64,000 nucleotides of DNA from Candidatus Pelearchaeum maunauluense (GTDB lineage: Archaea > Thermoproteota > Nitrososphaeria_A > Caldarchaeales > Caldarchaeaceae). Below are positions 1,573 through 40,377 of this stretch, one piece after another; positions within the stretch are counted from its first letter, which is position 1, and each line of letters starts with the position of its first letter. The stretch lies in the NCBI GenBank assembly GCA_030059675.1, contig JANVYQ010000001.1, positions 1-64,000 on the forward strand, given 5' to 3'. Below the pieces are notes generated by a model. It had not been told where the DNA came from. It worked only from the letters and a program-made list of their open reading frames with translations, and ran no database searches. The position numbers and the translations under genes are program-made.

Positions 1573-2349
1573 GTGGCCCTGTTTGGTAGGGCTTTGCAGA
1601 ACCTACGACTACTGCGTGAGCCGCGTATATATAGACTAGGCCCTGTGGAAAATCCCTACGAGATATACCGAAGCATAGCTCTCGGCGAGGAGTACTCGTT
1701 TCTACTGGAGTCGGTCAGCGGTCCTAGGAAGCTGCGCGAATACTCGTTCATAGGGTTTGACCCCTACTTGGTCATCCGTCTCCATGATGGCATTCTGCTA
1801 GTGAAGGATATTGCTGGCGGCAGCGTGGCTGAGGTGGAGGTAGCTGACCCAGTGGAGCCTCTTAGGTGGCTTGTCCTATCAAACCCCATAGGCTCTGGGT
1901 TTAGGTTCCTGGGCGGCGCGGTAGGATACCTATCTTACGACGCCATACGATACTGGGAGAAGCTACCAGAGCTGGCAAAGCGTGTGGGAGACTTCCCAGA
2001 TATGGAGTTCGCCGTATACGACAGGGGATTTGTGATAGACCATAGGATGGGCGAGGCATACTACTACACCATGCGGAAGGGGGATGATGCACCGCCCAAA
2101 ATAGAACGCGTCAAGAACACAGCCAATCTACGTGTAAGCGGCGTCAAGTGCAACGTCAAGCAGAACGAGTTTGAGGACATGCTTATAAGAGCCAAGGAAT
2201 ACATAGCCGCTGGCGACATCTTCCAAGTAGTTCTATCAAAACGCTACGACATGCAGCTCTCAGGGGACGTTTGTAGATTCTATGAGCAGCTAAGGGAGCT
2301 GAACCCCTCGCCCTACATGTATCTCCTCAAGATGGGTGAGCGGGCATAA
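1573..2349 (+). pseudogene. trpE: Anthranilate synthase component I, 3'-truncated
   Basis: FLLES, GGAVGYLSYD, AKEYIAAGDIFQVVLS, LNPSPYM; stops at 258 aa just before the expected SPE motif, so most of the chorismate-binding domain is missing. Confidence 0.85.
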
Positions 2350-2726: not shown

Positions 2727-3125
2727 GTGTCCGCGCCTGGTAGTGAATTATTAAATAAAGTGTTATTAAACTATGCAGCAAGAATAGGAGTCGCTGCGAA
2801 GCTTGAGAGAGTTGATAGATCGCAGTTAGAAAAACTGATTACGTCATTAGATTATGTGGGAGGCCAGGAGGAGTCGCTACTCGTAACGTCTGCCTTCGCA
2901 ATGAGGCAGGCGGCTAGAAATGAGCTAGGAAGGACAACGGCGCAGCTAGTAGGCGAAGCTTTGGAGAAGTGTAATGGAAAGGCGCAGGCTAGGGCCGTAT
3001 TGGGACTAGCTAAATGGGTATTTGAAAGCATCGAGAGGATACCCATACAGATTCGTTTGGAGGAGGTAGCTACGCTGAGCTTCCAGCACTACCTGAAGGC
3101 AGTAAGGGAGAGGCAACTTGCCTAA
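2727..3125 (+). CDS. cas11: Type III CRISPR small subunit (Cas11/Csm2-like)
   Basis: 132-aa alpha-helical protein heading a RAMP/Cas10 operon; AFAMRQAAR and LGLAKWVFE segments. Confidence 0.7.
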   Translation: MSAPGSELLNKVLLNYAARIGVAAKLERVDRSQLEKLITSLDYVGGQEESLLVTSAFAMRQAARNELGRTTAQLVGEALEKCNGKAQARAVLGLAKWVFESIERIPIQIRLEEVATLSFQHYLKAVRERQLA

Positions 3126-3834
3126 CTACAAGGACTTCAACTCTGATAAAACACAGATAATTAGGATAGAAGGCATACTCATCAATGAGACCCCACTGAG
3201 GGTCGGAGCTGGCAAGGAATCCTCCTTAGAAGCCAGCGTGGACGTCGCAGTTTACAGGGTCAGGGGTAACCCGTGCATACCTGGTTCTAGCTTAAAGGGA
3301 GTGCTCAGGACTAGATTTGAGCAGTTAGCCAGAAGCGCTGGGCTTAGGGTCCACGGGATATTCGGCGAGGAGGGCGAGAGAATAACAAGGCAAGAGGACG
3401 AGAGTAATGACTTTTGCGAGGTCTGCGGGACGTTCGGTAATACTAGGTTAGCTAGCCACGTGATCGTCAGATACGCTTATCCAATTAATGGAGGAAGGAC
3501 GTTCCTGAAGACGAGCGTAGGTATAGATAGGGTCTTTGAGGGCGCTAGGCCTGGAGTACTGTTCACGGAGGAGCTCGTTGAGCCGTTTACCGAGTGGAGC
3601 TTCGGAATGGATATAATAAATATAGATGTCCTGCCAGAACCGAGAGAGGACGACAACAGGGCTAAACTTCTGAAGTCGCTCCTAGACGAGCTCTCCTCTT
3701 TAGGCGTGTACGTGGGAGCTAGGAGGAGTGTAGGCCACGGGCTCATTAAACTCAGGAAGTGGAGCTGGTCGAAGTACAGCTACGAGAAAGGCAAATTGGT
3801 AAAGGTCGACGGAAGTGAAGTAAAGATTGTCTAG
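3118..3834 (+). CDS. csm3: Cas7-family RAMP (Csm3-like)
   Basis: TPLRVGAG, IPGSSLKGVLR, CEVCGTFG, GIDR, G-rich loop VGARRSVGHG; candidate catalytic Asp in ASVD. Confidence 0.9.
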   Translation: MPNYKDFNSDKTQIIRIEGILINETPLRVGAGKESSLEASVDVAVYRVRGNPCIPGSSLKGVLRTRFEQLARSAGLRVHGIFGEEGERITRQEDESNDFCEVCGTFGNTRLASHVIVRYAYPINGGRTFLKTSVGIDRVFEGARPGVLFTEELVEPFTEWSFGMDIINIDVLPEPREDDNRAKLLKSLLDELSSLGVYVGARRSVGHGLIKLRKWSWSKYSYEKGKLVKVDGSEVKIV

Positions 3835-4738
3835 TAGGGAAGATTGGATAGCGTCGAATAATTATTTGAGAGATGTTTTAATACAGGGAGATATAATAAA
3901 TTTATCGCCTTTAAGGATAGGTGCCGGAAAAGAGACAGTATTGGTTTCCCCGATAGATTTGTCAGTTATACGAGTAAACCTCAATGGTATCCCGACACCG
4001 TACATCCCCGGCTCTAGCTTAAAAGGGATCTTCAGAAGCCAGGCTACCGCGCTGTCTAGGAGCAAGGGACTGAACGTCTGCAGCGGCCTATCTAAGGAGA
4101 CCTGTATGGATACGAAGGTTATAGGAGGTGTTCCATTGAGGCAGTTCGTGGATTGGAACTTAAGGGCAGGTAACGTAGCTAACGCTCTAAGGGCATTCGC
4201 TAGTGACGCCTGTCTGCTCTGTCACGTCTTCGGAGCACCGTCTTACGCCTCAAAGGTCAATTTCTCTGACGCGTACCCAATAGAGCGCGAGGGTGTGAGA
4301 CTAGGCTCTAGGACTGGGATCGCTATAGACAGGAAGACTGGCGCGGTGTTCCACCAAGCGCTTTACACAGTTGAGTACGTCGAGCCCGGCGCTAGGTTCT
4401 CGCTCTCGATACATTGCAGGAACATACCGAACTACGCGCTGGGGCTCATTTCTTCCATCATCAAGTTGGTAAACGATGGCAGCGTTAGGGTCGGAGGATT
4501 GAAGAGCAGAGGCTTCGGCCTAGTAAAGATAGAGAACCTCTCGTTCTCGATAAAGGATGCGCAAGGAAGCGAAGCTGTTCTAAGGGCTCTAGACGAGTGC
4601 GACTCCGAGGTCGACATAAGCGGTTTGCGGAAGGAGAGGAGGGATGGCTACGTAGTTATTAGGGGTGGCGAGTGCGAGCGGTTGATGGACGCCCTGCAGG
4701 AAGTCTGGAGAGGGTTTAAGGGTTATGAGCAGCGTTGA
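3827..4738 (+). CDS. cas7: Cas7-family RAMP (Csm3/Csx7-like)
   Basis: SPLRIGAG, PYIPGSSLKGIFR, CLLCHVFG, GIAIDRKTG, VGGLKSRGFG. Confidence 0.9.
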   Translation: MSSREDWIASNNYLRDVLIQGDIINLSPLRIGAGKETVLVSPIDLSVIRVNLNGIPTPYIPGSSLKGIFRSQATALSRSKGLNVCSGLSKETCMDTKVIGGVPLRQFVDWNLRAGNVANALRAFASDACLLCHVFGAPSYASKVNFSDAYPIEREGVRLGSRTGIAIDRKTGAVFHQALYTVEYVEPGARFSLSIHCRNIPNYALGLISSIIKLVNDGSVRVGGLKSRGFGLVKIENLSFSIKDAQGSEAVLRALDECDSEVDISGLRKERRDGYVVIRGGECERLMDALQEVWRGFKGYEQR

Positions 4739-5699
4739 GGTCATAAAGAACCCGCCTAGGAGGAGGGACGTTTACGAAGGCTTAACCGGGACTATACGAG
4801 CCTCAATAATAGCAGAGAGTTTCCTTTTCGTCGGCTCTGGCAGGAGATCGATCGGGATCAGCGAAGAAAATGTAAGGAGGGTACTGAGCGGCAAGAGGAA
4901 TTTCAGGCAGGCGGCCGTCGAGCTATCTCAGAGGATAAAGCTCGAGCACGACGAGTTCTCGGTCAGCGGAGGAAGGGCTGTAGTTCCTGGCTCAAGCGTT
5001 AAGGGGAACGTGAGGTCTAGGATAGAGTTAAGCATCGTTCCGAGCGCGGGAAAGGTAATCTCATGCTTAGTAAGGGCCTCGAGAGTATCTAGCGAGCCCG
5101 GCAGGGGCACGCAGGGGTGGAGGCACTGGAGGATATGGAGGGAAGGCATCGAGGCACAAAGGGGCCCTCCATGCGATATGACTAGGGGCCAGACGGTCTG
5201 CAAAGTGTGCGACCTCTTCGGGAGCGCTGGGCTCATTAGCTTGATTCACTTCAGCGACTTCCAGATGGGTGACGGAGGTCTAGAACCGCTATCATTGGAT
5301 CACGGGATCAAACTCATGTCGGCCCGCCCTGGCTCTGTCTTCAACGGTTCCATCGCGTTCATGAACCTCTCTCCTGACGAGCTCGGCCTGCTCTTGTTCG
5401 GAATGGGCATAAGGAATTCCGCTGAAGGCTTAACCATATTGTTCGGCAAGCTTAAGTACAGGAAAGAGTTCTCTGGGAGGCAGTTCGGGAGGGGTAAATT
5501 CAAGGTAGAACGGATAGAGTTAAGCGACGTCTCCAAACCTTTGGTGACAGACGGCGGTGAACTCATCGCTCCAGGTAGGTCGGTATCAGGGCCAGAGCTT
5601 AACGGCGTACTAAGGGCACTACGCAAGGCGATGCTAGACTCGTTCTCTAATTATCTCGTCGAGATAATGGAGGTCGAGAGGTTACATGGCATTAGTTAA
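4725..5699 (+). CDS. cas7: Cas7-family RAMP (Csm5-like, type III-D)
   Basis: LFVGSG, VPGSSVKGNVRS, CKVCDLFG, ELGLLL, FGKLKY...FGRG. Confidence 0.8.
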   Translation: MSSVEVIKNPPRRRDVYEGLTGTIRASIIAESFLFVGSGRRSIGISEENVRRVLSGKRNFRQAAVELSQRIKLEHDEFSVSGGRAVVPGSSVKGNVRSRIELSIVPSAGKVISCLVRASRVSSEPGRGTQGWRHWRIWREGIEAQRGPPCDMTRGQTVCKVCDLFGSAGLISLIHFSDFQMGDGGLEPLSLDHGIKLMSARPGSVFNGSIAFMNLSPDELGLLLFGMGIRNSAEGLTILFGKLKYRKEFSGRQFGRGKFKVERIELSDVSKPLVTDGGELIAPGRSVSGPELNGVLRALRKAMLDSFSNYLVEIMEVERLHGIS

Positions 5700-8442
5700 C
5701 ATACCTTACACACCTCTGGGATACCCCGTCTACAAGTCCTTCATAATACCGTATAGGGATGGAGACGGGGTAGTTACCTGTAGGCGTCTAGAGAAGAGCG
5801 ACGTCGATAACTGGAGGGAGACGCTAGCGCAGCTCAGGGAGTTCTTAGAGCTAGTCGAAGGTACGGCCGCCGATGAGGAGGTAAAGGTTGAGTTAATTGC
5901 AGATATGGTCGCCGCCTTCTTCAAGGCTCCTCTTATAGCCGACCCGTTACCGTCACTCTTCATAAGCCCCTCGAAGCTTTACGTCATGCTCAGGTCCTTC
6001 GGCAGCAAACGGCTTAGCGACTTAATAATGCTAGATAAACGTCAGGAGAGCTTCTTGGACGTCTTTCGGACGGTTATGAACGAAGACATTATAAGGAAAA
6101 TCAAAAGCTCGAAGTTGTACGGTTATCTCTCTAGTAGGAGGTTATACGAGGTTCTGGAGAACAGCTGGTTCGTTATCCCTGCAGATACTAGGCCTGGCTA
6201 CAACGTCTCGAGTTTAGTACCACACCTGTTGCTCAGCTCAGCCGCTGCGTGGTGCATAGCTGTAAACAACGGAGGTGTTGAGAGGGAGGAGGCCGCATTG
6301 ATAAGAATTGCAGCGATGTTTCACGACGCGGGGAAGCCGTTTAATTACCAGCGGCACGTTGAACCCTCTTTACAGGTCGCTAGGTCCGTCTTAGGTAACG
6401 TCATACACCCGAGTTATATAGATAAGATAGTTGAGATAATAGAGAGGCACCACGAGGAGACTTCACCACTACATAAAGCTGACAGGGCAGTAGCGTCGAT
6501 CGACAGGCTGAACTACTTGGTAAGCGCGTTGATAGGCAACGAGATAAGGGACGCGGCTAAGGAGATAGGTGAGGTCGACGAAGTAAAGGATGAGCTTTAC
6601 CAGACGGGATGGAGCTTCTGGAGGAGATTATACGAGCATTATTCTTCTTCAGGAGCTGATAAGGTTAGGGAGCTGTCGGAGAAGTTCGTTAACAGACTAG
6701 CAGAGCACTCAGATAGTTACAAGTCGGTAATAGACAAGGAGAAGGCAGACGGTGAGGAGGTAAAGGACATAGATGTGCTGCTAATTGACATTGGAGGAAT
6801 ACAGAACTTCATATACAAGGGCGAGGACCTCCGCTCGCTATCGGCCGCTAGTCTCTCGGTAGACTTCCTCACGATGGCATACATACCCCTTTTCCTCCAG
6901 AGCTTCCTGCTCAGCCGATACGGCATCTGGCCCCCATACGAGGCGTTCGTCTACTCGGCTGGAGGTGTAGTCGAGGTGCTCCTGCCCTCGCGCATCGCTG
7001 AGAAGGTCAGCGGAGAGTTGGAGGAGGAGCTGAACAGGCGCGTGAAGGGAAGGTCGTCGATGAATGAGCTCTCGGTCAGGCTGATCAGAGGGAGACTCTA
7101 CACTAAGTACTCTACGACCACCGTCAAGTTAAGCCAAGGGATGGCTATCAAGAAGAACACCTCGAGGATGGACGTCACCCAAGAAGTAGAGGGCGAACTA
7201 GGAAAAGAAGTGAAGAGGTTATGCGAGAACTGTAGGTCTAGAAGGCCGGCGCGCGGCGAGCGCGTATGCGAGGTCTGCAGGGCTCTTAGAGAGATAGGCA
7301 GCGCGATCCACTTCAAGGAGAAGTACACAACGGAGGTCGAGCTACCGCAAGGGATATCACGGGATAGGATTTTGACGTGCGAAAAGGCGTTTGGGATTGA
7401 TTGGAATAGTGCATCTAACTTCCTGACCGAGCTAATAGCTGGCAACGATCCTAGGAAGTTGCCAGAAGAGAAGATAAGGTCTCTGGCAGTTGTAGCGTGT
7501 GACGGGAATTTAATGGGCCCGTTCATAGCTTCTAGCGTTTCTTTGACCGATAAACTAGAGAGGAGCACTAGAATAGATATCGCGATGAAGAAGGCTTTGC
7601 GGAGAGCTGTCGAGGAGATATCTAAGGCTATCGGTAGCGAGGACGGGGAGGAGGCCGTAAGGACGTATCTAAGGGTATACCTCGGGACCGTCTACGCTGG
7701 CGGAGACGACGCGCTCATACTGAGCCCCGCATGGGCCTCGCCTATATTAGCTACTAGGCTATCTGAAGAGTTCGCGAGGGAGCTAGGAGGGGCTAGAGGG
7801 CTTTCCGTCGGGTTGGTAGCCGTCAACGCCAGGGCTAACATATGGGGCGCTATCGACGCCGCCAAAAGCCTGCTCAAGTTCGCTAAAGATAAGGGAAGGG
7901 ACAGGCTAGGCGAGGGGTTAGGATATATCGCATTTGACGCTATCGACGCAGGGATGTTCTCCGGGAGCACCTCAAAGTCGAGGTTGGGACAACTCGAAGC
8001 CGCTATTCTTTCACATCAACCGTACGTTATAGGCCGCGATTCAGATAACTCGATCAACGCGCTGTTGTCTATAATCCTCTCGGGGAGCTGGTCATCAGGC
8101 GATCCTAAAGGCGCTGAGGACGCTGTTAGGAAAGCCTTTAAGATCTACATAGGTGGAGAGGAGCAGAACGAGGTTAAAAGGTTAAGGAACGTGATCCGGA
8201 GGGCCCTCTCGTCCTGCTTGGAGATGGCAGCCGCACTAGGGATCTCTAAGGACTCTGAGAGCTACGTAGGAGGCCTAATACCGACGTATATCGCTAGGCA
8301 AATAGCTAGAGTTAAGGAGGGCACTGGTGGGAGGGCTTACGAGATTACCTTCAAGCTAATTCCCGGCTTCGTTGGTAGCAATTATTCTGCGCTAGGAGAC
8401 GCTTTCATCATGATAAAGATACTCGGAGGCGGATTGTTATGA
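5686..8442 (+). CDS. cas10: Cas10 large subunit with HD nuclease and cyclase Palm domain
   Basis: PADTRPG..SL..H, MFHDAGK, HH, ADR; IDIGGIQNFI; YSAGG; Zn finger CENC...CEVC; DGNLMG; YAGGDD. Confidence 0.95.
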   Translation: MALVNIPYTPLGYPVYKSFIIPYRDGDGVVTCRRLEKSDVDNWRETLAQLREFLELVEGTAADEEVKVELIADMVAAFFKAPLIADPLPSLFISPSKLYVMLRSFGSKRLSDLIMLDKRQESFLDVFRTVMNEDIIRKIKSSKLYGYLSSRRLYEVLENSWFVIPADTRPGYNVSSLVPHLLLSSAAAWCIAVNNGGVEREEAALIRIAAMFHDAGKPFNYQRHVEPSLQVARSVLGNVIHPSYIDKIVEIIERHHEETSPLHKADRAVASIDRLNYLVSALIGNEIRDAAKEIGEVDEVKDELYQTGWSFWRRLYEHYSSSGADKVRELSEKFVNRLAEHSDSYKSVIDKEKADGEEVKDIDVLLIDIGGIQNFIYKGEDLRSLSAASLSVDFLTMAYIPLFLQSFLLSRYGIWPPYEAFVYSAGGVVEVLLPSRIAEKVSGELEEELNRRVKGRSSMNELSVRLIRGRLYTKYSTTTVKLSQGMAIKKNTSRMDVTQEVEGELGKEVKRLCENCRSRRPARGERVCEVCRALREIGSAIHFKEKYTTEVELPQGISRDRILTCEKAFGIDWNSASNFLTELIAGNDPRKLPEEKIRSLAVVACDGNLMGPFIASSVSLTDKLERSTRIDIAMKKALRRAVEEISKAIGSEDGEEAVRTYLRVYLGTVYAGGDDALILSPAWASPILATRLSEEFARELGGARGLSVGLVAVNARANIWGAIDAAKSLLKFAKDKGRDRLGEGLGYIAFDAIDAGMFSGSTSKSRLGQLEAAILSHQPYVIGRDSDNSINALLSIILSGSWSSGDPKGAEDAVRKAFKIYIGGEEQNEVKRLRNVIRRALSSCLEMAAALGISKDSESYVGGLIPTYIARQIARVKEGTGGRAYEITFKLIPGFVGSNYSALGDAFIMIKILGGGLL

Positions 8443-9119
8443 AGGAGATAAAGGTCTACCTGAAACCGGTCACACTCCTGAGTATAGGTTCCGGCGTAGA
8501 GGAGGCTGTAGGTTCTGACATAGTGCAGATCAGGACTAGGACCGAGAGGGGACTCGTTCCTTACATACCCGGCTCTTCAGTCAAGGGAGCGCTCAGGTCG
8601 GCAGTCAGCAGGGTAGCTAGGAACTACGGCTTCGAGAGCTGCGGCGAGACTCTGCCTGAATATGTGAAGGCTAGACACGTAGAGATGCTTAAAGAGGGAA
8701 AGGAGTGCGACGTCTGCTACGTCTTCGGCCAACCGGGCCCGTCAGTATCTAATATGGGAAAGGCAGTCTTCTCGCCTTTCTACCCGGACGGTGAAGTAAC
8801 TGTTACCTCGATAACTAGGGTTAGGTTAGAAGACTCCAGCTTAAGGGCCCACGAGGGAGCGCTATATACGGCCGAGTGCATAGTGCCGGGCCAGACCTTC
8901 AGCGGCTCGATTAGAATAATAGCTAGGAGAAACGGAGACGTCAGGAAAACGCTACAACTGCTGCTGCTCTCGCTAGCGTCCCTAAGGACCGATAGAATAG
9001 GAAGGTCAGGGATAACCGATGTTAGGATAGAATTAGCTGATGATTTGAAGGCACTGTTAGACAGTAAGTGGAGGTCCCTCGCCTCAGATTTGGAGGGGTG
9101 GTTCTGGGTTGATATGTAA
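8439..9119 (+). CDS. cas7: Cas7-family RAMP (Csm3-like)
   Basis: LSIGSG, GSD, PYIPGSSVKGALR, CDVCYVFG, IGRSG. Confidence 0.88.
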   Translation: MKEIKVYLKPVTLLSIGSGVEEAVGSDIVQIRTRTERGLVPYIPGSSVKGALRSAVSRVARNYGFESCGETLPEYVKARHVEMLKEGKECDVCYVFGQPGPSVSNMGKAVFSPFYPDGEVTVTSITRVRLEDSSLRAHEGALYTAECIVPGQTFSGSIRIIARRNGDVRKTLQLLLLSLASLRTDRIGRSGITDVRIELADDLKALLDSKWRSLASDLEGWFWVDM

Positions 9120-10185
9120 AGAGGTAGAGATCGAGTTCGTAACCCCTGCGATAGTGAGCACACGCGTATCCGATAGAGGTTACGTTGCGCCGAGCAGCTA
9201 CATAGCCGCTACTACCGTTAGAGGGGCCCTGTTATCATCGCTGCTCTATCACGGGTACGTCGACGAGGAGCTAGTAGCCAAAGAGGCCGAGAGGCCCTCG
9301 GTAATAGCTAGCCCTGCCTATCCGTTGAGCGGTGAAGGCAAGAGGGCCCTTCCAGCCACTCTTCTACACATCAGGTGCAAGGTCTGCAAGGAAGTACGCA
9401 TTCCGCAAGACTTCAGGATAACCGCAGAAGGGATCGAGGGAGCGGAGACGCTTTGTAGAAATGGTCACCCAGCTGTGGAGAGTCCACATCCTAAACCGGT
9501 ATACCTTAGCGGAGAAAAAGGTATGGAGGATGCAAATGTCAGCTGCGAGAGCCCGATAAACGTAGGGATGAGCAGGTACAGGGCCTCGGCAGCTGGAAAG
9601 ATGCTCTACATATACGAGGCCATCTCGCCAAAGAGCAGGTTCTGGTTCAGGGTCGTTAGCTTAGAGGACGTAGAGGTCCCATCGCAACAAACCCTGTGGC
9701 TCGGGAGAGGGATAACTAGAGGCTTCGGCGAGGCTAGGATGAGGGTCAGGAGCGAGATAAGCTTCGAGGGGCTTGCTGAGCGGATGAGGGACGCTAGCAG
9801 GGAGGGTAGGGAGCTGCTATTCTACTCGTTATCGCCCATAGCTAGGGTTGACGGCGATAAGTACTGTGGCTACCCATCGAGGGTAGATCTTTACAGGTTA
9901 TCTGCTAAGAGGAGGGGAGGGGAGCTCAGGATACGAAACATTTACGGCCGGCCGATCGACGTGAGTCTAGGCTGGAGCATTACTAGGGAGAGGGAGGGCG
10001 AGAGGCCAAATCTCTTCTCAGTAGCTCCGATGGGCTCACTCGTGGTAGCTAGCCCGCATGAGACGAGCCCGGAGGACCTAGCCATGCTGTTCCTAGCTGG
10101 TACCGTAGAGGACGTCCTGGGTTCTCCGATAACGGGGCTTAACATGTTAGGCCCTGCCGAGCTAGCTCTGGGCGAGAATCTGTGA
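9109..10185 (+). CDS. cas5: Cas5-group RAMP (Csx10/Csm4-like)
   Basis: YIAATTVRGAL, SPAYP, LGRGITRGFG, second degenerate RRM; position after Cas10. Confidence 0.75.
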   Translation: MICKEVEIEFVTPAIVSTRVSDRGYVAPSSYIAATTVRGALLSSLLYHGYVDEELVAKEAERPSVIASPAYPLSGEGKRALPATLLHIRCKVCKEVRIPQDFRITAEGIEGAETLCRNGHPAVESPHPKPVYLSGEKGMEDANVSCESPINVGMSRYRASAAGKMLYIYEAISPKSRFWFRVVSLEDVEVPSQQTLWLGRGITRGFGEARMRVRSEISFEGLAERMRDASREGRELLFYSLSPIARVDGDKYCGYPSRVDLYRLSAKRRGGELRIRNIYGRPIDVSLGWSITREREGERPNLFSVAPMGSLVVASPHETSPEDLAMLFLAGTVEDVLGSPITGLNMLGPAELALGENL

Positions 10186-11120
10186 GGGCTAGCCACATAG
10201 GGAACGTTACCGTTAGGAGCCTGGCCATACTCTACCTAGAGCCGGAGACGCCTATATATGTAGGTGCTGGAGGAGAGGAGGTCGTTAGATACTTCCTCAG
10301 ATTACCGGGAAGGGGCCTGCTAATACCTGCGACGAGCTGGAAGGGAGCCTTCAGGGCTGTGACCGAGGCGATAGCTAGGAGTTTAACTAGGGAGGACGTA
10401 AAGGACGAGCTAGAGTGGATAGCCCTAAGGACTTACTCCGAGGCCGACGACGGGATAAGGTACAAGGCTGATAGTGAAGAGCTTGAGAGGGTAGGGAAGG
10501 AAGTGAAGGTTATACTCAACGGAGGCAAGAGCGAGCTCTTAGACGTGAGCAAGGAGGAGCTACTTTATTTCCTAGAGGAGGCGGGCTCCGAGAGGGAGAA
10601 GCTGGAGCGTAACGACGAGCACGAGTTAAGAAGTGCAGCTGAGAAGCTGGTCGCACTCAACTGCCCTATCTCCAAGCTCTACGGGAATAAGGTCATAGCT
10701 AGCAAGCTCAAGTTCCTAGACACGATAATCGACGCACCTACCTCGATTAGGCCCGGTATAGCCATAGACAGGGCTAGCATGAGGGTTAGGGAGGGACACC
10801 TCTTCTTCACCGAGGTCTTAGACAGGAAGGATACAATACAGCTTAAGTTAATAATTGATAACGTAAAGCCCGGAGAGACTGATTCGCTACTTTTAGCATC
10901 AACCTTACGACATATAGAGACGCTAGGGCTGAGGATAGGGGGGAGGAGGTCAACGGGTTTGGGGAACCTAAGACTTAGAGAAGCGAAGATATACACGATA
11001 AATCTAGAAGAGGACGTAAAAAGGGAAAGGATGAAAATAGCGAGGATAACTGAAGGAGATCAGCGTAGCATAACAGAATTCATAGAATGGTTGATGGCAC
11101 AGAGAGATGAGCGTTCATAA
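10182..11120 (+). CDS. cas7: Cas7-family RAMP with helical insertion
   Basis: TPIYVGAG, IPATSWKGAFR, CPISKLYG, GIAIDR, IGGRRSTGLG. Confidence 0.88.
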   Translation: MRASHIGNVTVRSLAILYLEPETPIYVGAGGEEVVRYFLRLPGRGLLIPATSWKGAFRAVTEAIARSLTREDVKDELEWIALRTYSEADDGIRYKADSEELERVGKEVKVILNGGKSELLDVSKEELLYFLEEAGSEREKLERNDEHELRSAAEKLVALNCPISKLYGNKVIASKLKFLDTIIDAPTSIRPGIAIDRASMRVREGHLFFTEVLDRKDTIQLKLIIDNVKPGETDSLLLASTLRHIETLGLRIGGRRSTGLGNLRLREAKIYTINLEEDVKRERMKIARITEGDQRSITEFIEWLMAQRDERS

Positions 11121-12372
11121 ACAGATAATTATGCGACAATTTGATGAGGCGTTTAGTAAAATAAGCATATTATCTTACTTTCTTAGCAACCTTGATATAA
11201 GGTTGCATGAGATCAATATTAATAAAATATTAGAGGAATGGTTACTCGATAATGCAATTAAAAAGTTAAATGATGAAAAATGGGATAATATATTAAGTAA
11301 ACTTGTAATAAGCACCCTAGAAACTAAATCAAGAGAACTATTTCATGAGATAATATCTTACACAGAAAATAAAATTAACGAATATAAAAACTATATAAAA
11401 GAATTAACACATGCCAAACACCCCCCTCCTGATGAAGCTCTCTCTGTCTTTATAAATTGTAGTAAAGTTTTACATGATTTCGTTATATTTGAAAAAGAGA
11501 AAATAAAGGAATTAAGAGAGATTATAAATAAGAGTTTAAATGAGGGCCTATGGTATTTATGCAGTATAAATTCTATGCTCTTTACACTTAGTGAATATAA
11601 AATTATAGAGGTACTTAGGCCACCTAGAAACGGGCAAATACTCCTAACATATGGGTCAGTTTTTCAACAACCTATATCGTTTAAGGTAAATCTTGATTTA
11701 ATCAATGATTTAACAATTTTATTTGAAAATTATACGAGTTTAAACCTAAATGACAGTCGTCTTGTAGAACGGTTAGCTACATGGAGGGCAGAGAACAAAG
11801 AAAATGAGATTATCGAACTATTAACAAATAAAATATGCAGTCTTAACCAGTTACAAAATAAAGGCGATAAAATTAGAGATCTCATAAAAATGATTACGTA
11901 TATACTGATAAGAAATAAGCAGGTTTGTTTATTAGACTTATTTAATTATCTACTTTCTAAATCAAGTCGCGGAACTGTTAACCTGTTGGTTTCACTCGAA
12001 ATATATAAGAACACACATGTATGCGTAATACCTCATTGTGAGGTTAAATTTGATGAAGATTTACTCAAAGAAGTTGACTTAGTAATTCCCTATGTCAATG
12101 CAAAATTTCCAAACCTTATAATAATTGAAATAACTACTAGCAAAAGTGATAAAGAAATAGATAGAAAACTATGTGAGTTTGAGAAGAAATTACTCATCTT
12201 AAGGAATTACTGTGATGTACTAGGAATACTCGTTCATAATAACAACGAAAAAATTTACGAAGAACGTTCCGAACAATTAATTATAGCACCTTTTTCAGAG
12301 TTTCAAAAAATCCTAGAGAAAATAAGATCTGAAGTGTCTTCGAATAGTAGCCTCATTTTGGAGAACGTATAA
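11107..12372 (+). CDS. Uncharacterised cas-linked protein with C-terminal PD-(D/E)XK-like nuclease domain
   Basis: 421 aa; overlaps the last RAMP gene by 14 nt; markedly AT-rich; EVDLVI-x11-IIEITTS...K near the C terminus. Confidence 0.65.
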   Translation: MSVHKQIIMRQFDEAFSKISILSYFLSNLDIRLHEININKILEEWLLDNAIKKLNDEKWDNILSKLVISTLETKSRELFHEIISYTENKINEYKNYIKELTHAKHPPPDEALSVFINCSKVLHDFVIFEKEKIKELREIINKSLNEGLWYLCSINSMLFTLSEYKIIEVLRPPRNGQILLTYGSVFQQPISFKVNLDLINDLTILFENYTSLNLNDSRLVERLATWRAENKENEIIELLTNKICSLNQLQNKGDKIRDLIKMITYILIRNKQVCLLDLFNYLLSKSSRGTVNLLVSLEIYKNTHVCVIPHCEVKFDEDLLKEVDLVIPYVNAKFPNLIIIEITTSKSDKEIDRKLCEFEKKLLILRNYCDVLGILVHNNNEKIYEERSEQLIIAPFSEFQKILEKIRSEVSSNSSLILENV

Positions 12373-12769: not shown

Positions 12770-12955
12770 TTTTAAATTCCTTCTAGGATTCAAGTTACAC
12801 GACGGTCTCGAGGATAGACATCGACTCCATGTTCATCTTTCAATTCCTTCTAGGCTTCAAGGCGACAGGCTGATGTGGTACAACATGGGCGAGTTCGACC
12901 ACACTTTCAATTCCTTCTAGGATTCAAGAGCGCAGGCATGATAGTCCAAGGCCGT
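12770..12955 (-). CRISPR. Truncated CRISPR array: 3 repeats, 2 full spacers, 1 partial spacer
   Basis: 25-bp repeat CTTTCAATTCCTTCTAGGATTCAAG at 12770-12794 (2 mismatches, trailer copy), 12837-12861 (1 mismatch) and 12904-12928; two 42-bp spacers; minus-strand form ends ATTGAAAG; no leader, runs into trpB fragment. Confidence 0.93.
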
Positions 12956-13702
12956 TTAGCCCTCTTCCTCCATCTGCCGCACAGCTTCAAGACCAATAAC
13001 CGACTGGTGGATTAGCGTGAAGTTCATCACACTCCCTACAGCGTATCTATAGCCATCTCCCTGGAGCACGGTCTCTACGGCCTCAGAGATCGCTATACCC
13101 AGGGAGCCTGGGTGTTCTGGGTTTTCTCCAAGCAGTATGGAGCCGAGCCGCGTCCGCCTACTTGGGCTGGGAACAACCTCAGCACCATACATGCGCATCA
13201 AGTACCGCCTATAGGGTTTCTGGCGATAGCTACTCCGCGTCATGAAGACTAGGCAACGGAGGCCGAAGCGTGATGCAGCGAGAGCAACAGCAGAGCCCCA
13301 CTGGCCAGCACCAGTCTCGGTAACCAAATACGCGGAGTTCTCTCTATGCGCATAATACGCCTGAGGCAGGGCCGTGTTGGACTTATGACTACCAATCGGG
13401 TTGATGTCCTCGCGTTTGTAGAGGATATGTGCAGGCGTGTCAAGTAGCTTCTCAAGCCGCCTAGCCCTTACCAGCGGCGTCGGTCTGCCCAGAGCTCTGT
13501 AAGCTTCAAGAACCGCGTCTAGAATATCTATGTAGCGCTGCGGTGATATCTCTTGGTCTAGAAGCTCCGCTGGGAAGAGCTTGGGCAAATTCTCAATCCG
13601 CGAATGCTCGTCAAAGCTTTTAGGGTCTCGTGGTGGTAATGGTTTGGGGAGGTCTGGCAGAATATTATACCATCTATTGCTGAGTATAGCCATGCCTCTC
13701 AA
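12956..13702 (-). pseudogene. trpB: Tryptophan synthase beta chain (TrpB2 type), 3'-truncated
   Basis: WYNILPDLP, GSHKSNT (PLP Lys), TETGAGQWG, PGSLGIAISEA, GSVMN; only 248 aa, C-terminal part absent. Confidence 0.88.
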
Positions 13703-14444
13703 CCGCCCTCTTTAATTCAGCGACAAAACCGCATACGCGGCTTATCTTTTCATCCTCACCCGCTTCCTCTAAAATTCGCAGTAGAGCGCTCCCCACCACG
13801 ACGCCATCCGCGCCTGCCTGCATGTATTGCTCCACCTGCTCAGGGCTTCGGACAGCAAAGCCAACAATAAGCGGCACACTCCCTACCAGCTCGCGGAAGA
13901 GGCGTATGTTCCTCCCAGCCGAGATGGGCAGTAGAACCCCAGTAGATACCATCAAGCCCAGGTAGATGAAAGCTGGCTCCAAGGAGGAGAGCCGCTTAAC
14001 CAACTTATGCGGAAAGCCCGTAGTTATGAAGAAAGCCTGCGCAACACCATACTTCTCACAGAGCCTAGAGTATCTCTCCAATTCCCCCAAGTGGTCTATC
14101 AACAAATCTGGAAATAACACACTACCGAACCCACTACTAACCCTGGAGAAGAAATCTTCAACCCCATACTTGAGAGCCTCGTCATAGTAGGTGAATAGAA
14201 TCTTGTTATCTCCAGGTAATTTGACAGCAGAATCCAGAGCATCGTCAAGCCCAGACAGGCTGGCGAGCGCGCGGCGCATAGAGCGTCTGATAACAGGACC
14301 ATCATACTTGGGCCTAGCTACGGGAAGCCCCACCTCAAGAATATCCATACCCGACTGATAGAGAGCAGAGACTAGCTTCGTGTTGATGAGCGGGTCTCCC
14401 GCGGTTATGTACAGGATGAGCGCGCGTCTTAGTTTTGGCAGCAT
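13674..14444 (-). CDS. trpA: Tryptophan synthase alpha chain
   Basis: YITAGDP, LEVGLP...PKYDGPVI, VGFAV, GADGVVVGSA. Confidence 0.9.
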   Translation of the reverse strand: MLPKLRRALILYITAGDPLINTKLVSALYQSGMDILEVGLPVARPKYDGPVIRRSMRRALASLSGLDDALDSAVKLPGDNKILFTYYDEALKYGVEDFFSRVSSGFGSVLFPDLLIDHLGELERYSRLCEKYGVAQAFFITTGFPHKLVKRLSSLEPAFIYLGLMVSTGVLLPISAGRNIRLFRELVGSVPLIVGFAVRSPEQVEQYMQAGADGVVVGSALLRILEEAGEDEKISRVCGFVAELKRAVERHGYTQQ

Positions 14445-36857: not shown

Positions 36858-37013
36858 CTAACTCTCAATACTTTCTTGGGAAAACCTCTCCAGCCTACGA
36901 ATCTCAGCGTATCCAATCTCCGTGTCTCGTTTCTTATAACAGTCAAGATCAGCCGTATGGTCTTGCGACGTCATTAAACGCTCACCCATCGGGAAGAACA
37001 TTAGCTCTTCCTG
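36858..37013 (-). pseudogene. C-terminal half of split hemerythrin-domain gene
   Basis: Manual translation QEELMFFPMGERLMTSQDH...CYKKRD...; completes the HxxxE motif when joined to 39982. Confidence 0.65.
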
Positions 37014-37104
37014 GTCGAAATAATCTGTTAAGTGGAGACTCTAACCATGTTTGTTATGAGTGGTGTTAATGTTTATATAAGTGATTGTATATTAGATTGA
37101 TTGC

Positions 37105-37368
37105 TTGGCTTCTAAGATTCCTTCTTGGATTCAGAAGTTTCTTCTGCCCGAGCTTGAGTCTGTAAAGGGCGAGCTTAAAGCGATTAACACTCGTATAGAG
37201 GAACTTGACAAGAGGATTGAAAGACTTCGTAATGAGATGATAGCCCGGTTCGAAGCTGTAAATAGTCGGATAGACTCTCTTGATAAGAGATTGGATGTTG
37301 CGGAAAGACTTGCAGTAATCGAGGCTAAGCTGAGAGAACATGATGAGATCCTGGAAAAGATAGCATAA
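37105..37368 (+). CDS. Small coiled-coil protein
   Basis: 87 aa with heptad pattern (INTRIEELDKRIERLR...IDSLDKRL). Confidence 0.7.
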   Translation: MASKIPSWIQKFLLPELESVKGELKAINTRIEELDKRIERLRNEMIARFEAVNSRIDSLDKRLDVAERLAVIEAKLREHDEILEKIA

Positions 37369-37506
37369 AACCTAAAACAAGTTATTACTAATTTTCACAT
37401 TATAGATCAATTAAAACCCGCTCTACCAAGTTTCTTATGTTTGGCGTTTATCTGCTTCATTTCTTATGCATGTGGGGTTCCGTTAACTTATTGTTGGTAT
37501 AAGTAT

Positions 37507-37640
37507 AAATTACGTTTTGGGGATATGTGAAGTTTGCGATAGCAAATTTGGGCGAGCGCAGCGAAGCCACATATCCTCCTGCTAAGTGACCCTGATAGGG
37601 GCAAGGTGCGAAGCACCGCAGAGTGCCCGCCGTCGCCACA
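37507..37640. repeat. Palindromic attC-like element with adjacent hairpins
   Basis: GGATATGTG (37521-37529)/CACATATCC (37568-37576), inner TTTGC-GATA-GCAAA, flanking AAATTAC and GCTAAGT, then GGTGC-GAA-GCACC. Confidence 0.5.
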
Positions 37641-37674
37641 TTCACTCATTTCTACCATCTCCTATGAGTTTTAC

Positions 37675-38590
37675 TTGATAATCTTTTCAAGAAAGATGAC
37701 TTTAACAAACAGGAACCGAAATTATAAAACATCTTTATTTTGAAATTTTAACAAAAATAAAAATCTGTGATAATGTTTGCGGTTCAGGGAGTTTTCTGAT
37801 TGCTGCTGGAGATGTTTTACTCAGATTATATAGCAGAGTTCTTAAAATATTAGAAGATAATCTTAGCGATGACAAAGAGGTCAAAGAAGTTTTAAAAGAC
37901 ACCAGGAAATCCCCAACTAGAACCTACTACATTGTTAGGCAAATAATTGTAAACAATCTTTACGGCGTTGACATAATGGAAGGCGCTGTTGAAATTGCTA
38001 AACTAGGATTTTGGCTCTGGTTAATTTCTCAGGTTAATCCAAAAAAAGTTGAGGATAAAAAATTGAAACATTACCAAACTTAGACTTCAACTTAATGGTT
38101 GGTAACACCTTGATAGGATTTGTTAATATCGAAGATGTAGAATCTGATCTTATACCAGTAAGACCTAAGAAAAAGCGGGAAAATCTTAAAACCAAACAAT
38201 ATTTAATAACCACATGGACTGATAAAGAGAAAACAAAATGGTTGAAAGAGCTGGCTAAATAAAAACAAAAATTCAAAACATTGCCTGCACAAGAAGCAGT
38301 TAAATTAAAAGAGGAGCTAAATAAAGATCTAGAAAAAGCAAGAGAAATTTTCAATGAAAAGTTCTACAATATGTTAAAGTCTAAAGGAATTAAGATTTCT
38401 AGGGAAGAATTTTTGAAATTAAAACCTTTCCACTGGGGATTTCGAGTTCTATGAAGTTTTCGCTTTAGAGAAAACAAAAGAAAGAGGGTTTGATATAATG
38501 ATTGGGAATCCTCCATATGGAAATACTTTGAATGAAATTGAAAAAATAACTACAAGGAATATATATAAATTCGAAAGTACTTTCCCGAAC
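37675..38590 (+). pseudogene. Type IIG (Eco57I-like) N6-adenine methyltransferase fragment
   Basis: CDNVCGSGSFL, NNLYGVDI, LPNLDFNLMVGNTL, PFHW, FDIMIGNPPY (38504-38518); interrupted by frameshifts and a stop; AT-rich; boundaries approximate. Confidence 0.82.
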
Positions 38591-38605
38591 AAGGAATCGG
38601 TGCTA

Positions 38606-38691
38606 CCTTCAATTCTCTTTTTGAGGTTCTAGTTAAAACAGTGATTGTCCCGACGAGCGTTATCGTTCTTTCAATTCTCTTTTTGAGATTC
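38606..38691 (-). CRISPR. Mini CRISPR array: 2 repeats, 1 spacer
   Basis: 24-bp CCTTCAATTCTCTTTTTGAGGTTC (38606-38629) and CTTTCAATTCTCTTTTTGAGATTC (38668-38691), 38-bp spacer. Confidence 0.85.
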
Positions 38692-39185
38692 ATGAAGATG
38701 TAAATCCATGTTCGCATGCTGAATTTATTATAACTGAGGAGATCCTTCCTGAGCTTATTGGGGGTTTAAGAAGAGGTGGAGAAGGAGCTTACCTCAAAGT
38801 CGTTAATGAATATTATGAAGAGTTATTGCCTGAGGTCGAAGATAAGGTGAAGAAAACGCAAAACTGTACAGAGAAAGCATTAGATAACCATGAATTCTTT
38901 TACCGCGTTAAAACATACTCTCCTGAAAAAATACTAGGCAGAGAGCTAAGTTGTTTAGCTATCCCTAAATGTTATGCCGATAAAGTGATGCAGCTTAGGG
39001 AGAAAATGAAACGCGAAGATTGTAGAAGAAAGAGAGAGTTATTGGCACGTTTGAAAGGTTACCTCATCTCTGTTCCTCATTATATAATCGAAAATGATGG
39101 AAGATGGGATGAGGAGCTCGGTCTTCCTATCGTCGGCCTTAAACGTTACACATATTCACCGCAAACAGGGCTTGTTAAGGGTTGA
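38692..39185 (+). pseudogene. Probable C-terminal fragment of Cas3 helicase
   Basis: Frame is open from the repeat edge; ends YLISVP...YSPQTGL, typical of Cas3 C termini; cas6 follows. Confidence 0.5.
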
Positions 39186-39421
39186 AGTGATTTTCCCCAC
39201 TATATATTTTGGATGATGTCATAGACTGCTTTCGTAAGGTGAGCGACAGCGTGAATTACGATATTGTAAAGCCATATATGCCCTCTTCCAGTTATTTTTA
39301 TAAGCTCTGTATGCACTTTCACGCCGATGGCTTAAAAGCATATTCTGGATCGCTTATTTAAGGAATTTTTTATTGAAATATCTATGATTCACAGGTAGCT
39401 CTTCAATTCGGGTTTGAGGTC

Positions 39422-39980
39422 TTGCCAATCGATGTTCTGGGAATCCTGCTCGAATGCAGCTCTAATCTAAATCCCATTTACTTTTCAGGATTTCATCTTA
39501 GGGGGCTTTTCTATAAGGTTTTGAGGTCTTTTGACCCGGGTTTCGCTGGATGGCTTCATGGTTTTAGGGGTTTGGCTCCATTCTCTATCTCTCCTCTAAT
39601 GAAGATCGATTCAGGCACGTATATCTTCAGGATAACATCGTATTTGACCAAGCTTAGCGATGCCTTGATCAAGGCATTCTCCAAGACTGATGATGTTGAG
39701 CTATTGAATAGGAGATTTAGGGTTGTTGAGATCTCTTATAAGAGGTTGGATCTTGAGAGGTTTATGAGGGATTCCGTGCCTTATACGAGGTATGAGCTCG
39801 ACTTCCTATCCCCTACATGCTTTAGGAGACCATGCCCATATATCCCCCTCCACCTCATGGGATTCCTGGCAAGGATTATGAAGTTTATCGGTAGACCGAG
39901 ATCCCATTATAGGTTCCTGCCCCTGCCGGAGCCTATCCTAATGTTGAGAAATCTTAGGAGGCAGTGGCAGCAGTATGCTG
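39422..39980 (+). pseudogene. cas6: Cas6 endoribonuclease, 3'-truncated
   Basis: GFHLRGLFY, WLH...PFSISPL, LDFLSPTCFRR, PLPEP..MLRNL; C-terminal Gly-rich loop absent. Confidence 0.85.
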
Positions 39981-39981
39981 G

Positions 39982-40377
39982 GTTTATGTGCTACCGTAGC
40001 AGCTCAATATACTCCCTGCATAGCTCTAGAACTTTATGAGCATCAACCCTACCTTCCTCATACTCTCTTATGGTGCTCTCTATCTGCCTAATGAGCGCCC
40101 TACCAGCCTCATGCTCCCTCAATATCACCTCAATAGGACCACCTGCGCGACGCATACCCCGCGTCTCAAAACAGGGCAACAAACAACCCTCCTCCTTCCC
40201 ATGATGGTATCTATCAACATAAACACTGCTGAACTCTAAGACCCTAACTATAAAACTAACCTCAATAGCTCTAGGAGAATTTTTCCAGAAGTTGATTCTT
40301 TCCTCTAAAGCATTTAGTATGCGCAAGATAAATGTATGCTCTCGCCTCAATTGTGTAGAGGGAGAGTCTTTACTCAT
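39982..40377 (-). pseudogene. N-terminal half of split hemerythrin (HHE) gene
   Basis: LRREH, HHGKEEGCLLP, GPIEVILREH, then LLR*HIN running into cas6 DNA. Confidence 0.85.

Follow-up and report, generated by a model that had tools for sequence, protein, structure and literature searches.

Within the first 64,000 nucleotides of contig JANVYQ010000001.1 of Candidatus Pelearchaeum maunauluense (assembly GCA_030059675.1; the whole of this stretch is called the window), we identified a gene, here gene X, that is best read as a new accessory of type III-D CRISPR immunity: a Can2-family nuclease module that lacks a CARF domain and is specific to one clade. Gene X lies at 11107..12372 on the forward strand, starts with ATG and encodes 421 amino acids (protein P0001; the coordinates include the stop codon). 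Its product divides into an N-terminal region (residues 1-~182; 11107..11652, +), predicted with low confidence to form long helices, poorly conserved and belonging to no known family, and a module of the Can2/Card1 nuclease type (residues ~183-421; 11653..12369, +), predicted to comprise a helical accessory part and a PD-(D/E)XK core from about residue 285. Gene X is more than a chance open reading frame (ORF), because its relatives retain its motif and its operon position; the ORF stays intact in 19 genomes or contigs despite identities of 11-30%. An initial annotation had presented the gene as a candidate new system, and we describe it instead as a new accessory family of a known one.

The gene X family

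P0001 alone gave no significant match in Pfam, NCBIfam, PADLOC, PHROGs or the sequences of the PDB, and a word-index protein search returned just the query or sequences already in the query alignment. Exhaustive searching of 1.84 billion representatives with phmmer recovered one true relative, P0002 (409 amino acids, E 7e-5), which in pairwise BLASTP is 24% identical to P0001 across 251 columns, the motif aligning in register. The second phmmer match, P0003, was rejected as a relative: it is an internally repeated protein that matches residues 127-192 only. Profile searches found one further genome with X (G067) among 76 genomes of the class, matches at E<=1e-3 in 15 of 401 sampled genomes of the phylum (the own genome and two false ones counted), and X in 3 of the 41 genomes searched from the order to which G261 belongs. 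The weak profile matches in G339 and G109 were false positives, namely RqcH and ornithine cyclodeaminase. Scans of the genome_contigs, metagenome_contigs and viral_contigs collections for related loci confirmed no locus.

Altogether, the family comprises 19 intact members that are 11-30% identical, except for one close pair at 86%. Context could not be read for P0002, G300, G440 and a broken copy in G181. The latter (L030 1662-1922) is decayed, with in-frame stops, and a second decayed copy, in G002 (L051 11951-12530), consists of two overlapping fragments.

Fold and putative catalytic motif of the C-terminal module

We modelled X with AlphaFold2 from a 13-sequence alignment, with a mean predicted local distance difference test score (pLDDT) of 63 and a predicted template modelling score of 0.58; the single sequence gave a pLDDT of 37.6 and was unusable. 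Confidence is highest over residues ~190-415 (pLDDT 62-91) and below 50 at residues 1-72 and 164-190. When the model was compared with the PDB by Foldseek, the first nine places were taken by Card1, Can2 and VC1899 (E 3.5e-4 to 1.3e-3), with a whole-chain template modelling score of just ~0.2. Among 48,161 representative chains searched with VIA-align, the first six were VC1899, two Can2, Can1, Card1 and Cdn1 (Z 9.9-10.3, 177-200 aligned residues), with residues ~151/183-414 of the model lying on the part of these chains that follows CARF. Aligning the 1000 best Foldseek chains with VIA-align put the same Can2/Card1 group in the first twelve rows (Z 10.0-11.1, 178-208 aligned). Other PD-(D/E)XK proteins (McrC, AF1548, Bax1, NucS and restriction enzymes) reached Z<=9.9, and those nearest in Z align over 100-127 residues, with a few lower rows aligning over more. 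VIA-align rows within one Z unit count as tied, and the Can2-type assignment therefore rests on the aligned length and the uniform identity of the top rows and not on Z alone.

Sequence identity in these structural alignments is 9-15%. When the last 155 residues of 18 members were made into a profile, its best PDB match was SthCan2 (E 0.014, which is not significant by itself), and this alignment places the E-x-D of X on E276-L-D278 and its E-V-T-x-R on I-E-C-K-T-R. In the window, the first motif is E322-V-D324 (12070..12078, +), aligned with the catalytic E276/D278 of SthCan2, and the second is E341-I-T343-T-S-K346 (12127..12144, +), aligned with E-C-K-T-R and having ExT at the ExK position. 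An E276A/D278A variant of SthCan2 is inactive according to the accessible text of PMC7969007. Both E322 and D324 are invariant in 18/18 members, and all 18 have E or D as their third acidic residue. The lysine position, T343 in the window, holds T in 16 members, S in one and K in one (G261, which has E-V-K).

The model has strands at 308-315, 318-330, 335-343 and 370-377 that carry E322/D324 and E341, and thus contains the core of the PD-(D/E)XK superfamily, an alpha-beta-beta-beta-alpha-beta fold whose second and third strands bear acidic metal ligands; it also matches many solved structures of the superfamily. Scans of 13 members against Pfam gave recurring matches that were sub-threshold and all of PD-(D/E)XK type: NERD in 2/13 (best 0.0011), Card1_endonuc in 2/13 (best 0.05), and Cas4, Hjc and PDDEXK_10 in 1/13 each. 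No member reached the gathering score of Card1_endonuc (PF09002), and P0001 had no match to it. An ESM Atlas structure search, which used a model of its own, also returned Card1-like, Mrr, NERD and YraN clusters, all beneath the naming bar, and a viral fold library returned generic small PD-(D/E)XK proteins only.

Residues ~183-421 of X are, judged from the predicted structure, a Can2/Card1-family nuclease module that keeps the metal-binding acidic triad E322, D324 and E341. The C-terminal PD-(D/E)XK-like pattern described initially is readable in the translation, and the proposed nuclease fold is borne out in the more exact form of a Can2/Card1-type module, albeit with threonine for the ExK lysine in most members. 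The nuclease-like part was first placed from about residue 290; the module starts near residue 183, given the span of the structural alignments to Can2-family chains.

Linkage to type III-D operons

Gene X follows a type III-D-like effector operon (2727..11120, +) and overlaps its last gene by 14 nt, as first annotated, since the upstream Csx7-type RAMP gene stops at 11120. We found that homologues co-occur with cas10, a check that the annotation had proposed: the 18 members whose context is readable, 17 of them intact and one fragmented, all adjoin the same III-D-like operon, and none lies away from one.

For the converse survey, a Csx10-like profile was searched against the same 401 phylum genomes, 49 of which match at E<=1e-10. 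The operons examined are those with the stronger matches, leaving aside eleven genomes weaker than 1e-30 and two small fragments, and their loci were scanned for X with a hidden Markov model of 13 X sequences, hhalign and NCBIfam. At E<=1e-43 there were 39 loci, in six of which (L038, L040, L054, L057, L060 and L063) the slot was unreadable near a contig end, and the readable set is 33 loci. Outside the 39 are L066 and L067, which have weaker matches, and L068 comes from the search of the G261 order and not from the 401-genome sample.

X is carried by 18 of the 33 readable sibling operons, plus one probable case. It stands directly after the last RAMP gene in 14, is intact but divergent and upstream of cas11 in three (G261, G437 and G236), and is fragmented and divergent in one (G002); the probable case (G043) is cut by a contig end, with an hhalign probability of 35% and its C-terminal piece on another contig. 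Among the other operons, the slot holds Csx1 or another CARF protein without X in five, Cas4/Csa1 in one and nothing comparable in eight. With start positions taken from longest-ORF calls, the 14 co-directional copies overlap the RAMP gene by 8-22 nt in eight cases, follow it after gaps of 3-17 nt in three and after gaps of 42-252 nt in three. A Csx1 or ring-nuclease-like gene adjoins X in 6/18 loci (G067, G040, G021, G188, G125 and G126). Gene X belongs as a dedicated accessory to a single archaeal type III-D clade, where it is usually the last gene of the operon and often translationally coupled to it.

Several other slot ORFs were ruled out as X at hhalign probabilities of <=0.4%, namely those in L066 (416 amino acids), L052 (581), L061 (515, 191 and 147), L064 (165), L053 (144) and L044 (127). 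As a separate observation, sizeable ORFs with no NCBIfam match lie by sibling III-D operons at L066 10508-11758 (G370, 416 amino acids), L052 3058-4803 (G006, 581), L061 11519-13066 (G209, 515) and L021 11285-13417 (G145, 710).

The N-terminal region

The layout of the Can2 family given in the accessible text of PMC12825302 has a ~150-residue CARF domain joined by a short linker to the nuclease domain that follows, so that in X a helical region of similar length stands where CARF would be. Residues 1-~182 form helices only in two AlphaFold2 runs (pLDDT 35-59), and the structural matches of the N-terminal ~180 residues are coiled coils only. When residues 1-185 were searched against the Atlas, no feature match was usable and the structure search returned only an EzrA-like coiled coil. 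CARF or SAVED families of Pfam matched 0/13 members at E<=1 and NCBIfam gave none either, in a region whose pLDDT is 35-59 and which was folded only within the whole protein. We also looked for the Csx1/Csm6 type, in which CARF is joined to a HEPN domain with an R-x4-6-H motif, and found no match of TIGR01897, Csx1_HEPN or another CARF/HEPN profile to P0001 or the 13 members. The early description of a mainly helical N-terminus without CARF agrees with these results. The winged helix that it placed at residues 150-200 finds no support; residues 164-190 are among the least confident of the model and the region is poorly modelled.

Column conservation reaches its minimum for the protein over the N-terminal ~180 residues (0.18-0.30, compared with 0.35-0.39 for the core), and there is no invariant residue before P309. 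Because the family has no invariant residue among its first ~290 positions, the alignment argues against a conserved ligand pocket in this part of X.

Evolution and base composition

We compared pairwise identities over 16 loci, whose genomes are related to each other. The mean is 18.3% for X, 33.9% for the Csx10-like protein and 35.2% for Cas10. Spearman correlations of these identities are 0.76 for X with Cas10, 0.69 for X with Csx10 and 0.76 for Csx10 with Cas10, and in Mantel tests 0/2000 permutations reached the observed X-Cas10 or X-Csx10 values. From these identities, X has diversified together with Cas10 and Csx10, about twice as fast. Between the close pair G040/G021, at a synonymous divergence (dS) of ~0.06-0.09, the ratio of nonsynonymous to synonymous divergence (dN/dS) is 0.77 for X, 0.31 for Csx10, 0.32 for Cas10 and 0.16 for the last RAMP gene.

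The guanine-plus-cytosine (GC) content of window gene X is 29.2% versus 52.0% for its operon, with the drop running from ~11000-11100 to ~12500. X is lower than its own operon in 17/17 loci, by 4.9-23.4 points, and GC at third codon positions (GC3) is low too. Over these loci, which include the window copy, L024 9316-10596 and L049 10548-11786, operons range from 28 to 62% and X from 22 to 41%. We rejected repeated independent horizontal transfer as the general cause, since the deficit is present at every locus and X shares its diversification with Cas10 and Csx10. Candidate causes of the persistent AT-richness are relaxed constraint under AT-biased mutation and selection for low expression of a harmful enzyme.

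The surrounding locus and genome

The effector operon of the window was defined by Pfam and NCBIfam matches and consists of co-directional genes, all on the forward strand: a cas11-like gene (2727-3125), two Csx7 genes (3118-3834 and 3827-4738), a RAMP gene (4725-5699), Cas10 (5686-8442), a second RAMP gene (8439-9119), the Csx10-like gene (9109-10185) and the Csx7-like last RAMP gene (10182-11120), which overlaps gene X. Two Csx7 genes exceed the NCBIfam cut-off (TIGR02581), and there are three further RAMP genes. Cas10 matches the Pfam families for palm2 (1.9e-13, residues 600-741) and HD (3.8e-7, residues 191-276), with HD and GGDD motifs visible in the translation. Its HD domain begins at residue ~191, after an N-terminal extension with no family match. 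The Csx10-like gene matches TIGR02674 at E 4.2e-5, below the family cut-off, and sibling Csx10-like genes are 27-35% identical. By these matches, the context of gene X appears to have the make-up of type III-D, with Cas10, a Csx10-type Cas5 and several Csx7/Csm3-type Cas7 proteins.

Gene X was first placed in a slot between an effector operon and a CRISPR array. The upstream operon is as described, whereas the array is merely a mini-array of 3 repeats of 25 nt and 2 spacers with a 67-nt period (12770..12928, +); 3 matches were counted against 0 expected in 100 shuffles. The CRISPR cassette is flanked by two truncated tryptophan genes: trpE stops at 258 amino acids and trpB at 248, the segments concerned being 1573-2349 (+), 12956-13702 (-) and 13674-14444 (-). 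In a genome of the same genus, G001, trpE is full-length (461 amino acids), nucleotide homology to the window ends at position 2342, and there is no Csx10-like match. For these reasons the whole cassette, from ~2.35 to 12.95 kb (~10.6 kb) and including X, looks like a lineage-specific insertion or rearrangement that broke the tryptophan genes. Elsewhere in the window, a second low-GC (33-38%), ORF-poor patch extends over 36900-40039 and contains a two-repeat mini-array (38608-38691), with a repeat different from that of the first, and a partial cas6-like ORF of 205 amino acids (39422-40039).

The genome to which the window belongs is 94% complete and has one cas10. Searched for other signalling components, it had no match for Csx1 (TIGR01897), Csx1_HEPN or Cas02710 and none for Card1_endonuc at E<=0.1; a SAVED search was uninformative, its control matching nowhere. 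It holds one ring-nuclease-like CARF protein (266 amino acids, Cas_APE2256), beside a truncated Cmr4 (200 amino acids) on another contig. These two genes are part of a remnant type III-B island (L037, contig C12 of G000, 5299-11967) that is flanked by truncated (234 amino acids) and full (393 amino acids) copies of a class V fructose-1,6-bisphosphatase gene.

Possible modes of action

We tentatively favor, at somewhat less than even confidence, the reading that X is a CARF-less Can2-type nuclease controlled through contacts of its N-terminal region with the III-D complex. X would act as a metal-dependent nuclease, probably as a dimer like Can2, and type III-D immunity would gain from it the cleavage of collateral or target nucleic acid. 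Its activity would be controlled by protein-protein contact between the helical N-terminus and the CRISPR RNA-guided effector complex, bypassing cyclic oligoadenylate bound by CARF. This form of control is favored because X is tied to a single operon type, frequently with translational coupling, co-evolves with core subunits and has an N-terminus lacking a conserved pocket. In a more far-reaching version, which we regard as less likely than not, a Can2-type nuclease was captured as a built-in arm of the archaeal III-D effector, its CARF domain being swapped for a helical docking domain, and target-RNA binding would activate it by direct contact and not through a diffusible cyclic oligoadenylate.

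Several of our results weigh against the contact-controlled reading. The catalytic lysine is replaced by Thr in 16/18 members, which therefore depart from the Can2-type E-x-K motif, and a dN/dS of 0.77 versus 0.16-0.32 in the cas genes is compatible with relaxed constraint on X. The N-terminal model is of low confidence (pLDDT 35-59), and a cryptic fold there is possible. Because X is absent from 14/33 readable sibling operons it is not a core subunit, and the divergent transcription of four copies means that the gene need not be translationally coupled. A Csx1/CARF effector in the slot of 5 sibling operons fits a free ancillary effector equally well as a docked one. Additionally, the genomes in the Mantel test are not independent, and their relatedness means that the result overstates the support.

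X may alternatively be a free ancillary nuclease activated by a messenger, its helical N-terminus being a new sensor, neither CARF nor SAVED, of a Cas10 product (cyclic tetra-adenylate, cA4, or another), with the ligand closing the nuclease dimer in the manner of Can2 and Cdn1. Those of the top structural matches that have been characterised are all activated by cyclic oligoadenylate according to the accessible texts of PMC7969007 and PMC12825302, X sits in a slot that Csx1/CARF effectors hold in sibling operons, and the window Cas10 retains GGDD. Since the own genome lacks Csx1, Csx1_HEPN, Cas02710 and Card1_endonuc matches while holding the ring-nuclease-like CARF protein, a signal would have no other recognised nuclease target among the families searched; that search, however, covered few effector families, and its SAVED control failed. 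A ligand pocket is usually conserved, whereas the N-terminal ~290 residues have no invariant position among the 13 members and the lowest conservation, and the Csx1 or ring-nuclease genes that adjoin X in six loci mean that X does not simply substitute for them. We consider this explanation unlikely on balance.

The Lys-to-Thr change raises another explanation, that X is catalytically impaired and serves the III-D complex as a nucleic-acid-binding or a structural or regulatory accessory. T or S occupies the ExK lysine position in 17/18 members, with E-V-K in the G261 copy only, and the elevated dN/dS of X fits such a loss. The inactive TsuCan2 control of PMC7969007 is, in its accessible text, a double mutant, E302A/K304A, that includes this lysine. 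The three acidic residues are kept in all members, however, and the Thr is itself conserved and not random. Beyond this Thr, at +2 or +3, there is usually a basic residue, which is R in most members and K346 in the window. BamHI and BglII are active PD-(D/E)XK enzymes with E or Q at the lysine position, which also counts against impairment, and we judge this explanation improbable.

That X is a selfish or hitch-hiking gene, for instance a toxin-like nuclease stabilising the cassette, and takes no direct part in interference would fit its GC deficit of 5-23 points and low GC3 in 17/17 loci, its near-neutral dN/dS, the decayed copies in G181 and G002 and its patchy distribution among sibling operons, but seems highly unlikely given its co-diversification with Cas10 and Csx10 over deep divergence, its fixed position often overlapping the last cas7 gene, the lack of a conserved antitoxin-like partner ORF beside it and the lack of any copy with readable context away from a III-D operon.

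Comparison with known systems and significance

To our knowledge, every Can2/Card1-family nuclease characterised so far is under the control of a CARF domain that senses cyclic oligoadenylates. With this family (DUF1887; SthCan2 7bdv, TbrCan2 8q3y-8q44, Card1 6wxw, VC1899 1xmx and Cdn1 8z4i/9u49), X shares in its predicted structure the whole nuclease module, both helical accessory part and PD-ExK core, and its E-x-D ... E-x-[K/T]-x-R is in register with their catalytic residues. Both are encoded with type III CRISPR loci; however, X is fixed in one III-D effector operon and Can2/Card1 are spread across subtypes, and X has ~180 helical residues instead of CARF and Thr for the Lys of ExK. Can1 (6sce) has a nuclease domain that shares the tied top places among the structural matches (Z 10.0, 178 residues aligned). 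In the accessible text of PMC7969007 it is monomeric and contains two each of CARF and nuclease-like domains, whereas X has one nuclease module and no CARF. The Csx1 proteins of sibling III-D operons take the place of X behind the last RAMP gene in 5 operons and are, like X, ancillary and not core; they differ in having an unrelated fold (CARF plus HEPN), metal-independent RNase activity and a recognisable sensor. NucS/EndoMS, YraN/UPF0102, NERD, Hjc, McrC and Bax1 match X in core fold and acidic motif, but generic PD-(D/E)XK proteins of this kind align over a core of ~100-127 residues only and have neither the Can2-type accessory part nor CRISPR linkage.

The Csx29 protease on the type III-E gRAMP is an effector enzyme physically coupled to an RNA-sensing complex. 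Csx29 and the NucC-Cas10 fusion, the latter mentioned in the accessible text of PMC11229360, would resemble X in manner of working only, as their folds are different and docking of X is hypothetical. We found no description of the X family in the accessible portions of the literature searched, including Shah 2018 (PMC6546367), Hoikkala 2024 (PMC11229360), Zink 2020 (PMC7694759) and Shmakov 2018 (10.1101/270033), although supplementary or online cluster lists, for example the unnamed 'C3a' clusters of Shah 2018, may contain it.

If the nuclease has indeed been captured as an arm of the III-D effector, this would be a class 1 effector to which a PD-(D/E)XK nuclease of its own is physically coupled, and the rapid evolution and AT-richness of X would reflect an arms race or the need to keep a toxic enzyme low. 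The PD-ExK site occurs in this family as a natural Lys-to-Thr variant, and X is unusual in that its GC content remains 5-23 points under that of the operon with which it co-evolves. The family also poses the question of how a type III ancillary nuclease may be controlled without a known messenger sensor, whether by docking or by a new sensor fold.

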